Shown in pieces: positions 1,885 through 24,820 of a DNA stretch of 64,000 nucleotides. Under the pieces are notes generated by a model. That model did not search any database and had not been told where the DNA came from. It worked only from the letters and a program-made list of their open reading frames with translations. The DNA lies in contig CAVFGR010000008.1 in NCBI GenBank assembly GCA_963622135.1, positions 150,218 to 214,217 of the forward strand, written 5' to 3'. The position numbers were made by a program, and so were the translations under genes. This DNA is from a bacterium. GTDB taxonomy: Bacteria; Bacillota_I; Bacilli_A; RFN20; CAG-826. Position 1 is the first letter of the stretch, and each line of letters starts with the position of its first letter.

Positions 1885-2102
1885 TGTTGTGTTTCTTTTA
1901 TAGTATTCTTCTTAAGTTTCCTATGGACGATGATCTCGTTAATAATAACGAAAACAAGCCAGAGTCCAGCTAAACATCCACCGACGATCCAATAAACTTT
2001 ATCAGGATCGCTCTTGCCGGCATTAGGGGCGAAAGCAATCGTCGCGATAATGCCGAGAATGAGGATGTAAATGATAATTCGATAGGCGATGCGATTCTTC
2101 AT
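1881..2102 (-). CDS. small two-TM membrane protein, hypothetical
   Basis: 73-aa ORF with two hydrophobic helices. Its ATG at 2100-2102 overlaps the stop of the dCMP deaminase gene, and its own stop overlaps the ecfA1 start, so it is translationally coupled within the operon. Confidence 0.5.
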   Translation of the reverse strand: MKNRIAYRIIIYILILGIIATIAFAPNAGKSDPDKVYWIVGGCLAGLWLVFVIINEIIVHRKLKKNTIKETQQ

Positions 2103-2587
2103 TATTTAACTTGGATATCGATATTTTTGCCATCATACTGGCGGATTTTGACACCTGCCAATTCAAGAATCTTTCTAGAGGCTTGATAGATGACGTCGTT
2201 TTTGTGGATATCGGAGAGATAAACCAATTCTTTGATACCAACTTGAACGATGGCTTTGGCACATTCGTTGCAAGGGAACAGGGTGACATAAAGGGTGCAA
2301 TCTTTCAAAGCCGTGCCTTGTCTGTTGTTCAAGATTGCGTTGAATTCGGCATGGCAAACGAACAGGTATTTGGAATCCAAACCCTCTCCGTGCCCCCATG
2401 GAACATCATCATCGGAGACGCCGCGAGGCATGCCGTTATAACCAACGGAAACGATTTTTTTATCTTTGTCGACGATGCAAGCGCCAACCTGAGTAGACGG
2501 ATCTTTACTACGCAAAGCAGATAAGACGGCAATGCCCATAAAGTATTCATCCCAATCAATGTTATCTAAGCGATAATGTTCTTCCAT
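2102..2587 (-). CDS. comEB: dCMP deaminase (ComEB-like cytidine/deoxycytidylate deaminase)
   Basis: Zinc-binding motifs HAEFNAI and PCNECAKAI; 161 aa. Confidence 0.8.
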   Translation of the reverse strand: MEEHYRLDNIDWDEYFMGIAVLSALRSKDPSTQVGACIVDKDKKIVSVGYNGMPRGVSDDDVPWGHGEGLDSKYLFVCHAEFNAILNNRQGTALKDCTLYVTLFPCNECAKAIVQVGIKELVYLSDIHKNDVIYQASRKILELAGVKIRQYDGKNIDIQVK

Positions 2588-19972: not shown

Positions 19973-20557
19973 CTAGTCTTTCAAATAAACGGGTTTGGCT
20001 CCTAAAGGCTCTTTGCAGAGATGCTTCTCATTGTCCAAATCTTTTAAAACCAGCAAGGTATTGGGCTCTTCTTCCTCTTTGCCCAAATAACGGAGGTCTC
20101 CTCTAAGGACGACATCGGGATTCCCATTGATGTAGTTAAGAACTTCGTCATTTGTCCAAATGGTATCTTCAAGCAAGCATTCGTCCCCGTCATAGATAGC
20201 GACATAACTTCTCTTGTTTCTGGCATTGGAAACACATAAGGATTTCTTGCTTACGTCTTTCAAGCCCTCCAAAGAAGAGACTAAATAAAGAGGAACATCC
20301 AATGAAGTAGCGACGATTTTTCCCACCGTCAAGCCGATGCGAACGCCGGTATAACTTCCCGGACCTTTGGAAACGATAACTTCATTGATATCTTTGGAAT
20401 TCAGTTTGTTGCGTTTCAAAAGATCATCAATTTCTTTAACTAACATCTCGGACTGTCTCTGCCACGCTTCATAATGAACACCATCGAGATATTCGTGGTC
20501 CTTTGCCAAACCGCAGGAGAGATAAGCATTTGAAGTATCAATAAGTAGACTTAACAT
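19973..20557 (-). CDS. tsaB: tRNA threonylcarbamoyladenosine biosynthesis protein TsaB (YeaZ)
   Basis: YeaZ-like N-terminus LLIDTSNAYLSCGLA and GPGSYTGVRIGL. Confidence 0.85.
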   Translation of the reverse strand: MLSLLIDTSNAYLSCGLAKDHEYLDGVHYEAWQRQSEMLVKEIDDLLKRNKLNSKDINEVIVSKGPGSYTGVRIGLTVGKIVATSLDVPLYLVSSLEGLKDVSKKSLCVSNARNKRSYVAIYDGDECLLEDTIWTNDEVLNYINGNPDVVLRGDLRYLGKEEEEPNTLLVLKDLDNEKHLCKEPLGAKPVYLKD

Positions 20558-21024
20558 GAATATTTCTCCTTTAAGGCCTTAAAGAGGTCTTCATATTGAA
20601 GGTCATCAGATTCAAAGACGAAGGAACGATCGTCGGCACCTTTATGAAAAATGGAGATTTCCAATCTTTCATCCGGGATCAATGACATGATGAACTGTGG
20701 CCATTCGATAAGGCAGATTCCATCGCCTTCGATATATTCTTCTAAACCAAGTTCGAGATTTTGCCCCTCTAAGCGATAGGCGTCTATGTGATACATCGGA
20801 ATTCTCGCTTTGAAATAACACTTCATGATGTTGAAGGTTGGGGAAATAACATCCTCTAAAAGTCCAAGGCCTTTGCCGATTCCGCCGGTGAAGGTGGTTT
20901 TCCCAGCTCCGAGATCGCCGCTAAGCAAAACGACGTCGCCTCTTTTTAGATATTGAGCGACGAATTCGCCTAACTCTTTGGTTTCATCCTTGCTATGGGT
21001 GGTCAATTCAGCGCGCATCTTCAT
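20551..21024 (-). CDS. tsaE: tRNA threonylcarbamoyladenosine biosynthesis ATPase TsaE (YjeE)
   Basis: P-loop GDLGAGKTT and the PTFNIM motif. Confidence 0.85.
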   Translation of the reverse strand: MKMRAELTTHSKDETKELGEFVAQYLKRGDVVLLSGDLGAGKTTFTGGIGKGLGLLEDVISPTFNIMKCYFKARIPMYHIDAYRLEGQNLELGLEEYIEGDGICLIEWPQFIMSLIPDERLEISIFHKGADDRSFVFESDDLQYEDLFKALKEKYSC

Positions 21025-21586
21025 TTTTCTCCGTAGCCACGAATGGCCTGGTTTCCTGATAGAACTTGCTAAACAAACGACGCACCTCGTTATCGACGAA
21101 CGGGAAATCTCTCTTTTGCATCAAGGAGAGGACGTGTTCCATCGAAGCCTTTATGGCGGCGCTTAATTCCGGGGAATAGTTGTAGGATTCGCTGTGTCTT
21201 TCGAATTCTTGAATATCCAATTCCTTGACGACGCCATCAGGGAACAATTTAACGTCCAAATCATAATCGATGTATTTGAGATAGCCGTCATCAAGCAAGG
21301 TTGGAGAGGCGATGTTGGTATAGTAGCAAATGCCTTCTTCTTTCATCATGCAGATGACATTCATCCATTCCTTTTTAAAGAGAATGAAAATGGCATGTTC
21401 CTTGGTCATCCATTTGCGTCCATCACGTTCAGTGACATACGAGGCTCTAGAGGCCAAGGCCCAATAGTCGTCGGTTTCTTCAACCAAATAAGCTGGGCTC
21501 CATTTGCGGTGAAGGAGTCCGTCATGTTTGTAGGCTTGCACTACTACCCATTTCGAAAATGGGTTCTCTTTGATTTTTTCATCCAT
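21008..21586 (-). CDS. DUF402-family protein (Ntdp/YgaC-like nucleoside tri/diphosphatase candidate)
   Basis: About 190 aa with DUF402-like conserved aromatic/acidic blocks (WVVVQAYKHDG..., YIDYDLDVK). The track start is GTG; the ATG at 21584-21586 (MDEKIKE) is preferred. Confidence 0.45.
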   Translation of the reverse strand: MDEKIKENPFSKWVVVQAYKHDGLLHRKWSPAYLVEETDDYWALASRASYVTERDGRKWMTKEHAIFILFKKEWMNVICMMKEEGICYYTNIASPTLLDDGYLKYIDYDLDVKLFPDGVVKELDIQEFERHSESYNYSPELSAAIKASMEHVLSLMQKRDFPFVDNEVRRLFSKFYQETRPFVATEKNEDAR

Positions 21587-21698
21587 AAATAAGTCGCGCC
21601 GCTCCACTTTAGCGGCCTTGGCTAGATTATAGCCCCTAAGTTTCTTCTCTTAAAGAAAGAAGAAAAGAGCCCCCATATATGGAGGCCCAAATTTTCTT

Positions 21699-22820
21699 TT
21701 AGAATAAGGATTCAACCACTTCCAAGACGATGGCCAAATCTCCTTTGAACTTATCGGTCGGAGCCGGATTGAACGGAGTGTCAAATGGCGGAACCATCAG
21801 ACTGTCTTCGTATCCCATCATGACATAGGTTGTACCCGGGCGAATGGCAATCGCACAGTCAACTAAAACCTTATCGGTTTTTATTTTAGAGATGGCTTCT
21901 CTGGTTTTTTGGGTCAGAACCTTCTTTTTGCTCTGACCATAAATAACCATCGTTTTCGTGTCGGAAACGACTTCTAATCCATCCAAATTGGTTGGAGGAA
22001 GGGCACGCTTGTTGCCTTTGACATAAACGACGACTGGGTCATGTTCCCAAGAGTTTGGAGCACTGACCATCTTTCCAACGAAAGCGGTCACATAGTTTCT
22101 TCCGTTCGGGCGAGAAGCTGAACAATCGACCAAAGTCACAGGGACGTTGTTGTATTCGAACGTGAGTTTTCCTCTCGAACCGACTTTGGCAACGTCTTTG
22201 TAAAGCAACGAATCAGTCAATTCGTTTGGCTGGATTTTGTCGTTGATGGTGCCTTTGAGATTTTGGACATCGAGTCCATCTAAAACATAGTTCGTTGAGC
22301 ATTCGAAGTATTTAGCTATGTAGGTATTGACCTCTTTTGAGCTCGATCTCTTTGACAAGACCGAGAAAACGCCCAAGAAGATGATCAAGGCAACAAAGAC
22401 GATCAACGTGATGTAGGTTGGCCAGTTGCCGGAGGTTTCTTTATCCATCAAGAGGGTTGGTAACAGCCATCCAAGAACGAGACCCACCAACACGATGCCG
22501 GTAACGATGTATTTTGCGATGTTGCGCTTTTTGTATTTCTTCGCAAATTCCTGTCTGGCATCCTCGATGTTCTTAAGTCCTTCGGTAGTGTATTCGAAGG
22601 TTTCAACCGGACCTTTCTTTTTGCGGCCAAACGAGGATTGGCCGTTAGAAAAGTTAGGATCCACCTCGTTATCTTCGTTATAAAGATTGACGCCCAGCTC
22701 GTTCTTTTCGACCGGCTTTTCGGCTTCTTTCTTTTCTTCTGGAGCAGGCTCGCTCGGTTTTACTTCATCGGCAAAGTCGGAATCTTCGTCGACGATATTC
22801 AAATCTTTTTCTTCTTCCAT
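21699..22820 (-). CDS. membrane-anchored protein: acidic/Lys-rich N-terminal tail, 2 TM, large extracytoplasmic domain; hypothetical
   Basis: Topology inferred from hydrophobic segments IAKYIVTGIVLVGLVLGWLL and WPTYITLIVFVALIIFLGVF. Confidence 0.55.
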   Translation of the reverse strand: MEEEKDLNIVDEDSDFADEVKPSEPAPEEKKEAEKPVEKNELGVNLYNEDNEVDPNFSNGQSSFGRKKKGPVETFEYTTEGLKNIEDARQEFAKKYKKRNIAKYIVTGIVLVGLVLGWLLPTLLMDKETSGNWPTYITLIVFVALIIFLGVFSVLSKRSSSKEVNTYIAKYFECSTNYVLDGLDVQNLKGTINDKIQPNELTDSLLYKDVAKVGSRGKLTFEYNNVPVTLVDCSASRPNGRNYVTAFVGKMVSAPNSWEHDPVVVYVKGNKRALPPTNLDGLEVVSDTKTMVIYGQSKKKVLTQKTREAISKIKTDKVLVDCAIAIRPGTTYVMMGYEDSLMVPPFDTPFNPAPTDKFKGDLAIVLEVVESLF

Positions 22821-22879
22821 AAGGATTTCCCCTAAAAAATGCTAGCCCACTATAGCATGTTTTTTGAGATTTACCCTAA

Positions 22880-23971
22880 TTATTTTCCTTCTTTAGGAGG
22901 AAAAGCCTTTTGGAGTTTTAATAATGGTCCGTACAGGGCCATCAATATCACGGCGCTGATGCCCGCTGAGGCGAAAACATAAATAACGTTATAAGTCATC
23001 GCACCAACGAGGTTTAAACCATAGTTAACAATGGACGATAACGATGAGCCGACAAATCTAACAAAGCCCGACAATAAGCATCCGAGAAGGATAAATATTT
23101 CGCCTTTCACGTTATAACCGACTTGTTTTTCACCAAAAATCAAAGGTTTGAAGAAGCCTAAAATCGCGACCGATCCAAAGCCGACCATATAGTCAAATGG
23201 ATATAAGAAGATGCCGTATCCATCGGTGATACAAGTGATTAAGCCATAGACAATGCCACCGCTGATAAAACCAGCTAATGGACCGTGTCTCAACGCAACA
23301 TATAACAATGGCAAGGTGGCAATGCCAATCGAACCACCAGTAACGCCAAGCGATGGGATGAAGTGCTGAACGACATCGATTACAATGCCCAAAGCCGAAA
23401 GAATGGCAATTTCCATCAAATCGCGAAGAGAGAACTTTCTTTCCTCATATGACGCAGATAAGTTGGCCAAGAAACCAATGAAAGCAAAAACGATGCCCCA
23501 AATGACGCCAGCCGATACACGAGTACCCGCCAAAGATCTCCATTCATCTAAATAATCCATAAAGGAGCTGCCGATGACCGACAAGCATTTCGCATAATCG
23601 TAAAAGATATTGCCAGCCAATAACAAAATCGCTGACATTAAGTAAGCCACTAAACCAGCTTCATAAAACTTCTTATTAACTTTGCCGAGGAAAGAGAAAA
23701 CAATCCCCACCAAAACAAGGGCGTAAATAACTATAAACGCCCACAAACATTCGCTGCCGTTAGCGCCAAATAGGACACTTCCGACATAAATTGATTCTCT
23801 TGAGCCTTTGCTTAATTCGTAGTACTCGCTACCAAGCGATGTACTTACCGTTATAGGCTTAGTTGAGAACATTGGCATTGCCCATCCTAAAAAGATGAGC
23901 GCACCGCATAACGCGGCAATCCACCAGAGGTTGCTCTTTACCCACTGGATTCCTTTTTCTTCCTTTTCCAT
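22880..23971 (-). CDS. thiT: thiamine ECF-transporter S component (ThiT-like C-terminal half) fused to an extra N-terminal ~4-TM domain
   Basis: The C-terminal ~185 aa align with ThiT (LRDLMEIAILSALGIVI..., ALRHGPLAGFISGGIVYGLI versus L. lactis SLRRGLTAGLVGGLIWGIL). A TPP riboswitch lies directly upstream. The track start is TTG; the ATG is at 23969-23971 (MEKEEKG). Confidence 0.6.
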   Translation of the reverse strand: MEKEEKGIQWVKSNLWWIAALCGALIFLGWAMPMFSTKPITVSTSLGSEYYELSKGSRESIYVGSVLFGANGSECLWAFIVIYALVLVGIVFSFLGKVNKKFYEAGLVAYLMSAILLLAGNIFYDYAKCLSVIGSSFMDYLDEWRSLAGTRVSAGVIWGIVFAFIGFLANLSASYEERKFSLRDLMEIAILSALGIVIDVVQHFIPSLGVTGGSIGIATLPLLYVALRHGPLAGFISGGIVYGLITCITDGYGIFLYPFDYMVGFGSVAILGFFKPLIFGEKQVGYNVKGEIFILLGCLLSGFVRFVGSSLSSIVNYGLNLVGAMTYNVIYVFASAGISAVILMALYGPLLKLQKAFPPKEGK

Positions 23972-24105
23972 AAAAAATCCTCCGAAAAACGGAGGAGGAA
24001 TCAATTAATAAAATTCATTCCTCCGCCAGCATTACCTGGATCAGGTTCCGTCGAGCTGGCACACAGCTCCTCTCAGCCCATTCTAATGAGCTCCGGTGAC
24101 ACAAT
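23972..24105 (-). promoter_or_regulatory. TPP (THI-box) riboswitch with an RBS-sequestering terminator-like hairpin
   Basis: The minus strand reads ...GGGCTGAGAGGAGCTGTGTGCCAGCTCGACGGAACCTGATCCAGGTAATGCTGGCGGAGGAA.... This matches the conserved CUGAGA and ACCUGAUC.GGUAAUGCC.GCG.AGGGA cores. It is followed by CCTCCG-ttttt-CGGAGG-ATTTTTT-ATG, a stem that contains the GGAGGA Shine-Dalgarno. Confidence 0.7.
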
Positions 24106-24112
24106 ATTAAAT

Positions 24113-24778
24113 CTAATCAATATGCCAATCAATTGGTTCGACGCCATTTTCGATAAGAAAGTCGTTACATTTGGTAAACAATTTGTTTCCAAACCAGCCT
24201 CCGCGATTGGCAGCCAAAGGGGATGGGTGATTCGCTTCAAGCACAATGTGTTTAGGATTCTTGACGAACGGTTTCAACTTCTTGGCAAAGCCACCCCAAA
24301 GCATAAACACAATAGGCTGATCTAAACCATCGATATATCTAAGCGTGTCCGCCATGAAGAGGGAGTACTCATTTCTTGCGTGTGACAACGGCTTTCCTGC
24401 CTCAACGGATAAATAGGCGTTAAGCATCAAACATCCTTGCTCCGCCCACGGGGTTAAGTCCCCATTACGGAAGTTCATCTTGATGCCTTGATCCGTTTCT
24501 ATCTCTTTGTAGATATTCTTCAAGGATGGCGGCAAAGGCATTCCTCTAGGAACAGAGAATGATAAGCCCATCGCCTCCCCCGGATTGTGATATGGATCTT
24601 GGCCAATGATTACCACTTTAAGGTTTTTTGGCGAGGTTAATTTAAAAGCTTGGAACATCATATCCCTCGGAGGATAAATTGTTTTGCTCTGATATTCTTC
24701 GTTTAAAAAAGCGTTCAATGTCTTGGAATAGTTTGATTCCGACACTTTTTCGAACAATTCTTTCCAATCTTTTAGCAT
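24113..24778 (-). CDS. ung: uracil-DNA glycosylase
   Basis: VIIGQDPYH catalytic motif and C-terminal HPSPL motif. The track start is TTG; the ATG at 24776-24778 (MLKDWKELF) matches the E. coli Ung N-terminal spacing. Confidence 0.9.
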   Translation of the reverse strand: MLKDWKELFEKVSESNYSKTLNAFLNEEYQSKTIYPPRDMMFQAFKLTSPKNLKVVIIGQDPYHNPGEAMGLSFSVPRGMPLPPSLKNIYKEIETDQGIKMNFRNGDLTPWAEQGCLMLNAYLSVEAGKPLSHARNEYSLFMADTLRYIDGLDQPIVFMLWGGFAKKLKPFVKNPKHIVLEANHPSPLAANRGGWFGNKLFTKCNDFLIENGVEPIDWHID

Positions 24779-24820
24779 AAAAAGATTATGCACTCGCAAG
24801 CGTTTACAAGCAAAGCGATA

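Follow-up and report, generated by a model that had tools for sequence, protein, structure and literature searches.

In a 64,000-nucleotide stretch of bacterial DNA (contig CAVFGR010000008.1; the whole stretch is here called the window), a gene of 363 codons very probably encodes a two-domain ThiT protein under the control of a thiamine pyrophosphate (TPP) riboswitch. Its C-terminal half resembles ThiT, the S component for thiamine in transporters of the energy-coupling factor (ECF) type, and its N-terminal half is an additional membrane domain (the N-domain) with four predicted transmembrane (TM) helices, for which a structural accessory role is tentatively proposed. Taken as a whole, with regulation, product and the role of the N-domain included, the interpretation of this region as a thiamine-uptake locus of an uncultured gut Bacilli lineage is moderately favoured. 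The pairing of riboswitch and thiT and the group II layout of the ECF genes are textbook, and the basic biology of TPP-controlled thiamine import is left unchanged. As far as the searches reach, the novelty lies in a vitamin S component being fused, across the clade, to a further membrane domain, in the prediction of a claudin-like fold for that domain and in an unnamed family of free-standing relatives. Limited literature searches, on S components extended or fused at the N-terminus and on bacterial claudin-like proteins, returned no description of either, which is weak evidence of absence.

The gene and its leader, read on the reverse strand, comprise the following features:

24128-24101, (-): promoter-like site, TTGGCA, 16 nt, TATTGT; 9/12 in a consensus scan, weak and pattern-only
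24107-24000, (-): TPP riboswitch aptamer (THI element; RF00059) with helices P2, P3, P3a, P4 and P5
24024-24017, (-): switching segment GGAGGAAU, the P4 3' strand and following bases, a Shine-Dalgarno (SD) look-alike able to pair with the anti-SD
24001-23994, (-): anti-SD AUUCCUCC, the 3' strand of the anti-terminator, overlapping the 5' arm of the terminator
23996-23972, (-): terminator and SD-sequestering hairpin, UCCUCCG, UUUUU loop, CGGAGGA, U6
23971-22880, (-): thiT-like open reading frame (ORF), ATG at 23971, stop at 22880, 363 residues
23432-23971, (-): N-domain, residues 1-180, four TM helices, predicted claudin-like topology
22880-23431, (-): ThiT S-component domain, residues 181-363 and stop codon

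The presence of a clear THI-box aptamer, as claimed in an earlier note on this DNA, is borne out by the match to RF00059, by an invariant core and by covariation among orthologous leaders. The cmscan program aligned RF00059 to 24107-24000 (-) with 50.8 bits (E 3.3e-9 in a 401-nt search) and matched all 105 of the 105 model positions. The ligand-contacting core lies at 24076-24020, where the pyrimidine-sensor arm contributes CUGAGA and the pyrophosphate-sensor arm contributes ACCUGAUC..UAAU..GCG.AGG. A search for the corresponding pattern CTGAGA..ACCTGATC..GCG gave a single match in the window and none in 100 shuffles, and the 64-kb window holds no other TPP core. A family-profile search of species-representative genomes identified 80 related loci (81 with an extra contig carrying the window's own gene). 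A regular expression for the TPP core has a match 5' of the gene, on its coding strand, in 73 of these 81 loci, and at least three of the eight loci without an upstream match have little or no sequence 5' of the gene.

An alignment of 64 distinct orthologous leaders contains 30 invariant columns, including CUGAGA, ACCUGAUC, UAAU and GCG.AGG, and RNAalifold recovers helices P2, P3, P3a, P4 and P5 from it. Within that structure, 97.7% of the cells are paired, compared with 80.0% in shuffles and 23-50% with slid partners; the covariation score reaches 0.506, shuffles giving 0.163. Neither value is reached in any of 500 shuffles. Compensatory changes on both sides are found in 15 of the 22 pairs, P4 being invariant and hence uninformative for covariation. 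Two of 20 orthologous leaders, at loci L012 and L013, score above the RF00059 gathering score at the equivalent position (56.2 and 54.8 bits). The aptamer is judged to be real because of its invariant core, its covarying stems, the two orthologues above threshold and the uniqueness of the core in the window. The leader would be expected, from its sequence, to bind TPP and to repress the downstream gene. The position of the promoter-like site, a pattern match only, would place the transcript start at about the first base of P2.

Immediately downstream lies the expression platform. The earlier note had described a stem that buries the GGAGGA SD and ends in a U-run touching the ATG, and such a structure is indeed found at 23996-23972 (-). 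Its stem (23996-23978) has seven pairs, five of them G-C according to the terminator scan, and a 5-nt loop. The 3' arm contains the GGAGGA SD itself (23983-23978) and is followed by U6 and by the ATG at 23971. Since the U-tract is also the SD-ATG spacer and the 3' arm is also the SD, a single hairpin could act on both transcription and translation. The minimum free energy (MFE) structure of the unconstrained leader, at -47.0 kcal/mol, pairs GGAGGAAU with AUUCCUCC; when P4/P5 is enforced as a proxy for ligand binding, the terminator/sequestor hairpin forms instead, at -41.0 kcal/mol. We infer that tight ligand binding could make up the gap of about 6 kcal/mol between the two folds.

The switching logic suggested by these folds would be as follows. 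Without TPP, the 3' side of the aptamer (GGAGGAAU) would pair with the anti-SD (AUUCCUCC), allowing transcriptional read-through and leaving the SD free. With TPP bound, P4/P5 would be locked and the anti-SD would pair with the real SD, giving the 7-bp hairpin followed by U6, which could both terminate transcription and hide the ribosome-binding site. Under thiamine sufficiency, TPP would rise, the aptamer would be locked and expression of the transporter would fall; under thiamine limitation, the two-domain protein would be made. The SD-burying hairpin is a family trait: a platform of the same design, in which an SD-like purine run forms the 3' arm of the MFE hairpin and is followed by at least four T and the ATG, is present in 51 of 61 distinct orthologous platforms. 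In a few orthologues (L033, L040, L042) the terminator is separate from the SD, which is free and lies further downstream.

The leader can be compared with that of Lactococcus lactis thiT, which carries a TPP riboswitch (RF00059) upstream of thiT as in Firmicutes (PMC8862789). The core (CUGAGA; ACCUGAUC..UAAU..GCG.AGG), helices P2-P5 including P3a, the gene family and the design as an OFF-switch with a terminator are alike. The leader in the window differs in its score, 3.5 bits under the gathering score, and in having no detectable conserved P1 among 64 orthologues. It also differs in that the 3' arm of the terminator is the SD and the U-tract is the SD-ATG spacer, and in that the aptamer's own GCGGAGG is an SD look-alike that would titrate the anti-SD.

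The 363-codon reading frame is genuine and its two-domain length is maintained. The identical 363-residue gene, with unchanged neighbours, is called on an independent metagenome contig. A start at a TTG at 24004 would lengthen the reading frame, but would take it across the leader hairpin and is unsupported. Among 118 clusters of relatives in protein databases, 111 are 324-390 residues long and a few are short (200-248 residues). A long ORF (330-391 residues) starts within 300 nt downstream of the aptamer core in 71 of the 73 core-bearing loci. The fusion is retained in relatives down to about 32% identity and in at least 80 species-level genomes. The ratio of nonsynonymous to synonymous substitutions (dN/dS) against close relatives is 0.05-0.10 for residues 1-180 and 0.02-0.04 for the ThiT half, so that the N-terminal half, too, is under purifying selection. 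In the full-length AlphaFold2 (AF2) model the mean predicted local distance difference test score (pLDDT) is 91.5 and the predicted template modelling score (pTM) is 0.87; the two-domain arrangement, with its short linker, is confidently modelled. Relatives are named plain 'energy-coupled thiamine transporter ThiT' in NCBI and other public databases, and the extra domain has therefore gone unremarked.

Only the C-terminal half of the 363-residue product is ThiT-like, as the earlier note had stated. The Pfam family Thia_YuaJ (PF09515) matches residues 185-347 only, with 52.1 bits against a cut-off of 25.8 and 169 of 177 model positions aligned, and this domain adopts in the model a six-helix S-component fold whose nearest solved structures are ThiT. 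Comparison of the single window protein with PDB sequences by phmmer gave no match, and only the family profile reached the solved ThiT proteins, to which identity is 20-22%. Relative to the solved ThiT/YuaJ structures (3RLB from L. lactis and 4TKR from Listeria; PF09515), the protein is of double length, with a 180-residue N-terminal tetraspan; it is distant in sequence, fails the equivalog cut-off and has a loop L1 without a Trp34-type aromatic lid.

In S components, a small-xxx-small (AxxxA) motif of helix 1 is associated with docking on EcfT and assembly with an ECF module (PMC11109136). The motif is present here as A189-I-L-S-A193; among 111 family members, its first position is G or A in 110 (S in one) and its second is A, S or G in all 111. 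Thiamine is contacted in ThiT by Trp34, Glu84, His125 and Trp133, with Trp34 and His125 sandwiching the thiazole (PMC5037267). In a hidden Markov model (HMM) alignment at about 20% identity, Glu84 aligns with Asp260, invariant in 111 of 111 members, and Trp133 with Tyr/Trp317 in 110 of 111. Residues D260, Y261, R228, R305, N328 and Y331 are invariant or nearly so in the family, and loop L1 is a conserved Gly-rich GxTGGS sequence with no aromatic residue. With identity this low (about 20%), the pocket alignment gives no secure basis for inferring altered specificity. The substrate of the ThiT domain is probably thiamine; the domain would bind thiamine and dock, via the small-xxx-small motif of helix 1, on a shared EcfA1-EcfA2-EcfT module.

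The additional membrane domain of about 180 residues is likewise confirmed, hydropathy and the AF2 model agreeing on four TM helices at approximately residues 15-31, 77-95, 101-133 and 154-175. DSSP assignment on the AF2 models places strands at 35-37, 40-44, 51-55 and 59-61, between TM1 and TM2, and at 151-152, between TM3 and TM4. The elements are thus predicted to follow one another as TM1, the four strands (35-61), a short helix, TM2, TM3 (which is long), a further helix, the short strand at 151-152 and TM4, and the four-stranded sheet would be extracellular. Modelled alone, the N-domain has a pLDDT of 89.4. Its conservation is low: apart from the start Met every column varies, and the most common residue has a mean frequency of 0.34, against 0.66 for the ThiT domain. 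The N-domain lacks conserved polar residues altogether, and its extracellular part lacks conserved aromatic ones as well. The lack of conserved polar residues argues against a second ligand site, and the low residue conservation fits a structural role better than ligand binding; the N-domain is not thought to form such a site.

All of the top 50 Foldseek matches to the modelled N-domain are claudins, TARPs, GARLH4 or MP20 (E 2e-3 to 2e-2; TM-scores 0.34-0.51). In the fold comparison, the pairs of values recorded for the N-domain were:

TARP gamma-7: 12.4, 116
MP20: 12.2, 119
TARP gamma-3: 11.7, 121
Claudin-19, -4 and -15: 9.4-9.7, 123-143
generic four-helix bundles: about 10, about 100

At the sequence level, the family profile gives a weak match to the CaV gamma-1 subunit (E 0.066). 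The window protein has no Pfam match at E of 1 or less besides Thia_YuaJ; PF00822, PF13903 and PF06653 in particular are unmatched, and two of 45 N-domains touch Claudin_2, with E of 0.011 or worse. Claudins carry the signature W-GLW-C-C in their first extracellular loop (ECL1); the ECL1 of the window protein (residues 36-75) has a single Cys and no GLW. Because there is no Pfam claudin match and the ECL1 cysteine signature is absent, the fold is termed claudin-like and is not placed in the superfamily. What the predicted domain shares with the animal claudin/PMP22/TARP-gamma/MP20/LHFPL proteins is the arrangement of four TM helices and a sheet built from ECL1 (four strands) and the second extracellular loop (one strand). 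It differs from them in its sequence, with a single borderline match and no ECL1 signature, in the modest TM-scores given above, in being bacterial and in being covalently fused to its presumed partner. The claudin-like fold of the model may reflect convergence on a simple fold.

The N-domain also has free-standing relatives. A profile built from 45 sequences gave 340 matches at E of 1e-3 or less among 1.84 billion representatives; the best 150 were examined, and these included 144 new proteins. Of the latter, 46 have a ThiT domain, two have no other recognised domain and 96 are short. The short proteins are mostly stand-alone, of 145-185 residues and with the same topology, and some are fragments. 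Two matches (P0126 and P0154), which have neither ThiT nor another Pfam domain, are probably fragments or frameshifts. ThiT is thus the sole recognised fusion partner of the N-domain among the best 150 matches. In the free-standing family (P0166-P0262; contexts in loci L082-L092), FG is a recurrent motif of extracellular loop 1 and LGxGAI one of TM4. When the fused set was compared with the free one by hhalign, the probability was 99.4% and E 1.6e-21 over 138 columns, a result that is partly circular, the free set having been picked with the fused profile.

The free-standing relatives are unnamed in the sources and match no Pfam family above threshold. Their most frequent weak Pfam match is DUF4064 (PF13273), a family of small bacterial membrane proteins, which is touched by six of the 45 fused N-domains and 10 of 71 free ones, with a best E of 3e-4; all of these matches are below the gathering score and the window protein itself has none. 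The earlier note had raised the question of whether homologues of the N-domain occur as separate genes beside thiT. Separate homologues exist, whereas adjacency to thiT was not seen in the six contexts examined, whose neighbours include spore genes, a helix-turn-helix regulator with UPF0122, LemA, a hydrogenase with a carbonic anhydrase, and dapB. On sequence grounds, the N-domain belongs to an unnamed family of bacterial tetraspan proteins comprising hundreds of clusters at 50% identity.

A precedent for such an arrangement is provided by CbiN and NikN, the accessory membrane proteins of metal ECF transporters. There, an S component works together with a small additional membrane protein bearing an extracytoplasmic loop, and in natural Cbi(MN) and Nik(MN) fusions the two are joined. 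Unlike the N-domain, CbiN and NikN are two-TM proteins of group I metal systems, their place in fusions or gene order is C-terminal, and their fold is unrelated to that of the N-domain. We know of no CbiN/NikN-like accessory for a vitamin S component.

Several observations weigh against the preferred interpretation of the locus. The RF00059 gathering score is 54.3 bits and the aptamer falls 3.5 bits under it, so that a scan of the whole window at Rfam 'gathering' lists nothing; moreover, no conserved P1 helix is detectable in the 64 orthologues, which makes the aptamer atypical. The ThiT domain misses the NCBIfam ThiT equivalog TIGR02357 (41.6 bits against a cut-off of 108.45), and Trp34 (loop L1) and His125 have no evident counterpart, aligning, at about 20% identity, to Gly and Ser positions. 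Neither thiT, nor an ECF gene, nor a riboswitch lies near the free-standing homologues in the six contexts. Finally, a rigidly attached four-TM domain might be expected to hinder toppling of the S component. With regard to P1, the cmscan alignment marks its pairs as non-canonical, and in the window at most a 3-bp UCA/UGA pairing can form. When duplex energies of the P1 flanks of the 64 aptamers were compared with those of permuted partners, the observed value was reached in 51 of 200 permutations with 10-nt flanks and in 26 of 200 with 18-nt flanks. The shortfall in score is plausibly due to the missing P1. The threshold that the earlier note had chosen as a test of the aptamer was therefore missed (50.8 against 54.3 bits), a failure outweighed by the extent of pairing, the invariant ligand contacts and the two passing orthologues. 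The same low score, together with the small proportion of leaders above threshold (2/20) and the lack of a P1 signal, would be expected of a degenerate relic or a chance look-alike. It is very unlikely that the leader is either of these: a relic would decay, but the TPP-contacting motifs are invariant over 64 diverged leaders while the stems covary, the platform design is conserved while its sequence varies, and the whole model is matched at an E of 3.3e-9. The 64 natural TPP aptamers without a detectable P1, most of them just under the Rfam threshold, could be of use for tuning the RF00059 model. Two further alternatives concern the gene itself. A missed start, whereby the N-terminal 180 residues would be an annotation artefact and the real gene a ThiT of about 180 residues beginning at an internal codon near residue 186, had been envisaged in the earlier note and is highly improbable. 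There is an in-frame Met at residue 186, and a few database relatives are short, but the riboswitch and the SD hairpin lie directly 5' of the ATG of the long ORF both here and in related loci; Met186 is unconserved, the family consensus there being TVRDIxE; and the low dN/dS of the N-terminal part, its pLDDT of 89 and the length kept in 111 clusters all speak for a genuine domain. Several of the short relatives, such as P0120 and P0143, are truncated ORFs containing the N-domain and the start of ThiT. The near-equal length of the two halves (180 and 183 residues) might also recall a tandem ThiT-ThiT protein with a degenerate N-terminal copy of the S component. This can practically be dismissed, given that the N-terminal half has four TM helices and a beta-sheet, not six helices, and that the second, very weak match of the N-domain profile inside the ThiT half is not significant.

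The role of the N-domain is more open to debate. It is proposed, as a tentative view, that it is a built-in accessory membrane subunit of ThiT with a structural role: it would pack laterally against ThiT and would stabilise, position or oligomerise the S component, or tune its docking or toppling. This proposal draws on the conservation of shape without conserved residues, on the short linker and the confident two-domain model, on ThiT being the sole recognised partner among the best 150 matches and on the fact that the nearest folds include lateral auxiliary subunits of membrane transport proteins. The chief competitors of this view are a changed or widened range of substrates and an unrelated passenger domain. 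In the latter case, a housekeeping tetraspan would have been fused to thiT in the ancestor of the clade and carried along, the two domains being functionally unrelated. The stand-alone homologues in varied contexts, with no thiamine or ECF link, and the two- to threefold faster evolution of the N-domain relative to ThiT are consistent with this. It is nonetheless unlikely, since at least 80 species-level genomes keep the fusion, in relatives as distant as about 32% identity and with a short linker and a high pTM, since a thiamine-independent membrane protein under TPP control would be costly, and since the 64-kb window holds no separate, second copy of the domain. A change of substrate seems less likely still. 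The fused protein might take up TPP or thiamine monophosphate, hydroxymethylpyrimidine, a thiazole precursor or some analogue, and the N-domain's extracellular sheet would help in capture. The absence of evident counterparts of Trp34 and His125, the Gly-rich L1 without an aromatic residue, the equivalog score far under its cut-off and the restriction of recognised fusions to ThiT among the best 150 matches, suggestive of a substrate-specific role, would agree with such a change. The N-domain, however, has no invariant residue other than its start Met and no conserved extracellular polar or aromatic residue, the pyrimidine side of the pocket is conserved or conservatively replaced (Glu84 to Asp260, Trp133 to Tyr/Trp317), and control by a TPP riboswitch is what is expected for plain thiamine uptake.

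The accessory role can be extended to a more specific and rather doubtful proposal, namely that there is a bacterial family of claudin-fold tetraspans of which one member has become the covalent auxiliary subunit of an ECF S component, packing on it as TARP and CaV-gamma subunits do on channels and modulating how substrate is captured, how the S component topples or how it competes for the shared ECF module. If true, no earlier case of an accessory membrane domain would be known for S components of the vitamin type (group II), and the principle of tetraspan auxiliary subunits would have a prokaryotic counterpart. In the current picture, ECF S components work as small, unattached units of six helices, toppling in the membrane and competing for a single energising module that they share. 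The fusion of ThiT to a four-TM domain, selected and found throughout the clade, fits that picture poorly: either toppling tolerates a bulky partner or the partner participates in it.

Genes for a matching energising module lie at the start of the window, as the earlier note had pointed out:

1884-1063, (-): ecfA1, TIGR04520 with 357.3 bits against a cut-off of 315
1072-209, (-): ecfA2, TIGR04521 with 359.3 bits against a cut-off of 330
219-1, (-): start of ecfT, first 72 codons (219-4) only, the gene running off the window; translation begins MAANITLGRYAPYNTCIHKLDARLK

Both ATPase genes pass their equivalog cut-offs. The 72-residue ecfT fragment matches no Pfam or NCBIfam family, and its only PDB matches are two EcfT chains, 4HZU_T and 4HUQ_T, at E 0.0013 and with the N-termini aligned to each other. 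No S-component gene adjoins the module inside the window, whose start the module reaches. The thiT gene, flanked by ung and by a gene for a 373-residue protein, is about 21-22 kb away, and this separation from ecfA1-ecfA2-ecfT is the group II layout. The ThiT described here would presumably use the distant EcfAA'T module. Beside the ECF ATPase genes, at 2102-2587 (-), lies a gene for a 161-residue protein of the cytidine/deoxycytidylate deaminase type, whose best NCBIfam matches, an anti-phage dCTP deaminase model and ComEB, are both far below their cut-offs.

The gene order around thiT (window 19973-24799) is ung, thiT with its TPP riboswitch, the 373-residue membrane protein of no assigned family, DUF402/NtdP, tsaE and a tsaB-like gene. 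Among relatives, ung is kept in 69 of 80 loci and the 373-residue gene in 67 of 80. The order ung, thiT, 373-residue gene, DUF402/NtdP-like, tsaE and tsaB-like persists where the ThiT proteins share only 32-45% identity (loci L002-L081), and it reads as inherited synteny. The GC content is even across the locus, at 42-46%, and gives no hint of recent import. The gene directly 3' of thiT is:

21699-22820, (-): gene for the 373-residue protein

Its product is acidic at the N-terminus, contains two hydrophobic segments and ends in a region of about 230 residues, and matched no Pfam or NCBIfam family; in the 67 loci that have it, the homologue is located immediately 3' of the long thiT on the same strand. 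Between thiT and this gene, at 22833-22865, A6, a 6-bp stem (ATGCTA/TAGCAT) with an 8-nt loop, and T6 form an element that by eye resembles a weak two-way terminator and is too AT-rich to pass the terminator scan.

The related loci come from metagenome-assembled genomes (MAGs), the only source of these lineages here; the MAGs are named as uncultured Bacilli, 'Candidatus Enteromonas', Mollicutes or Erysipelotrichaceae and are mostly from rumen, gut or faeces, judged by isolate names. Six loci (L002, L005, L024, L034, L053 and L070) come from bins named Staphylococcaceae, Alistipes shahii, Roseburia hominis, Lachnospiraceae, Oscillospiraceae and Faecalibacillus; such unrelated names on bins that carry a Bacilli-type locus point to mislabelled or contaminated MAG bins.

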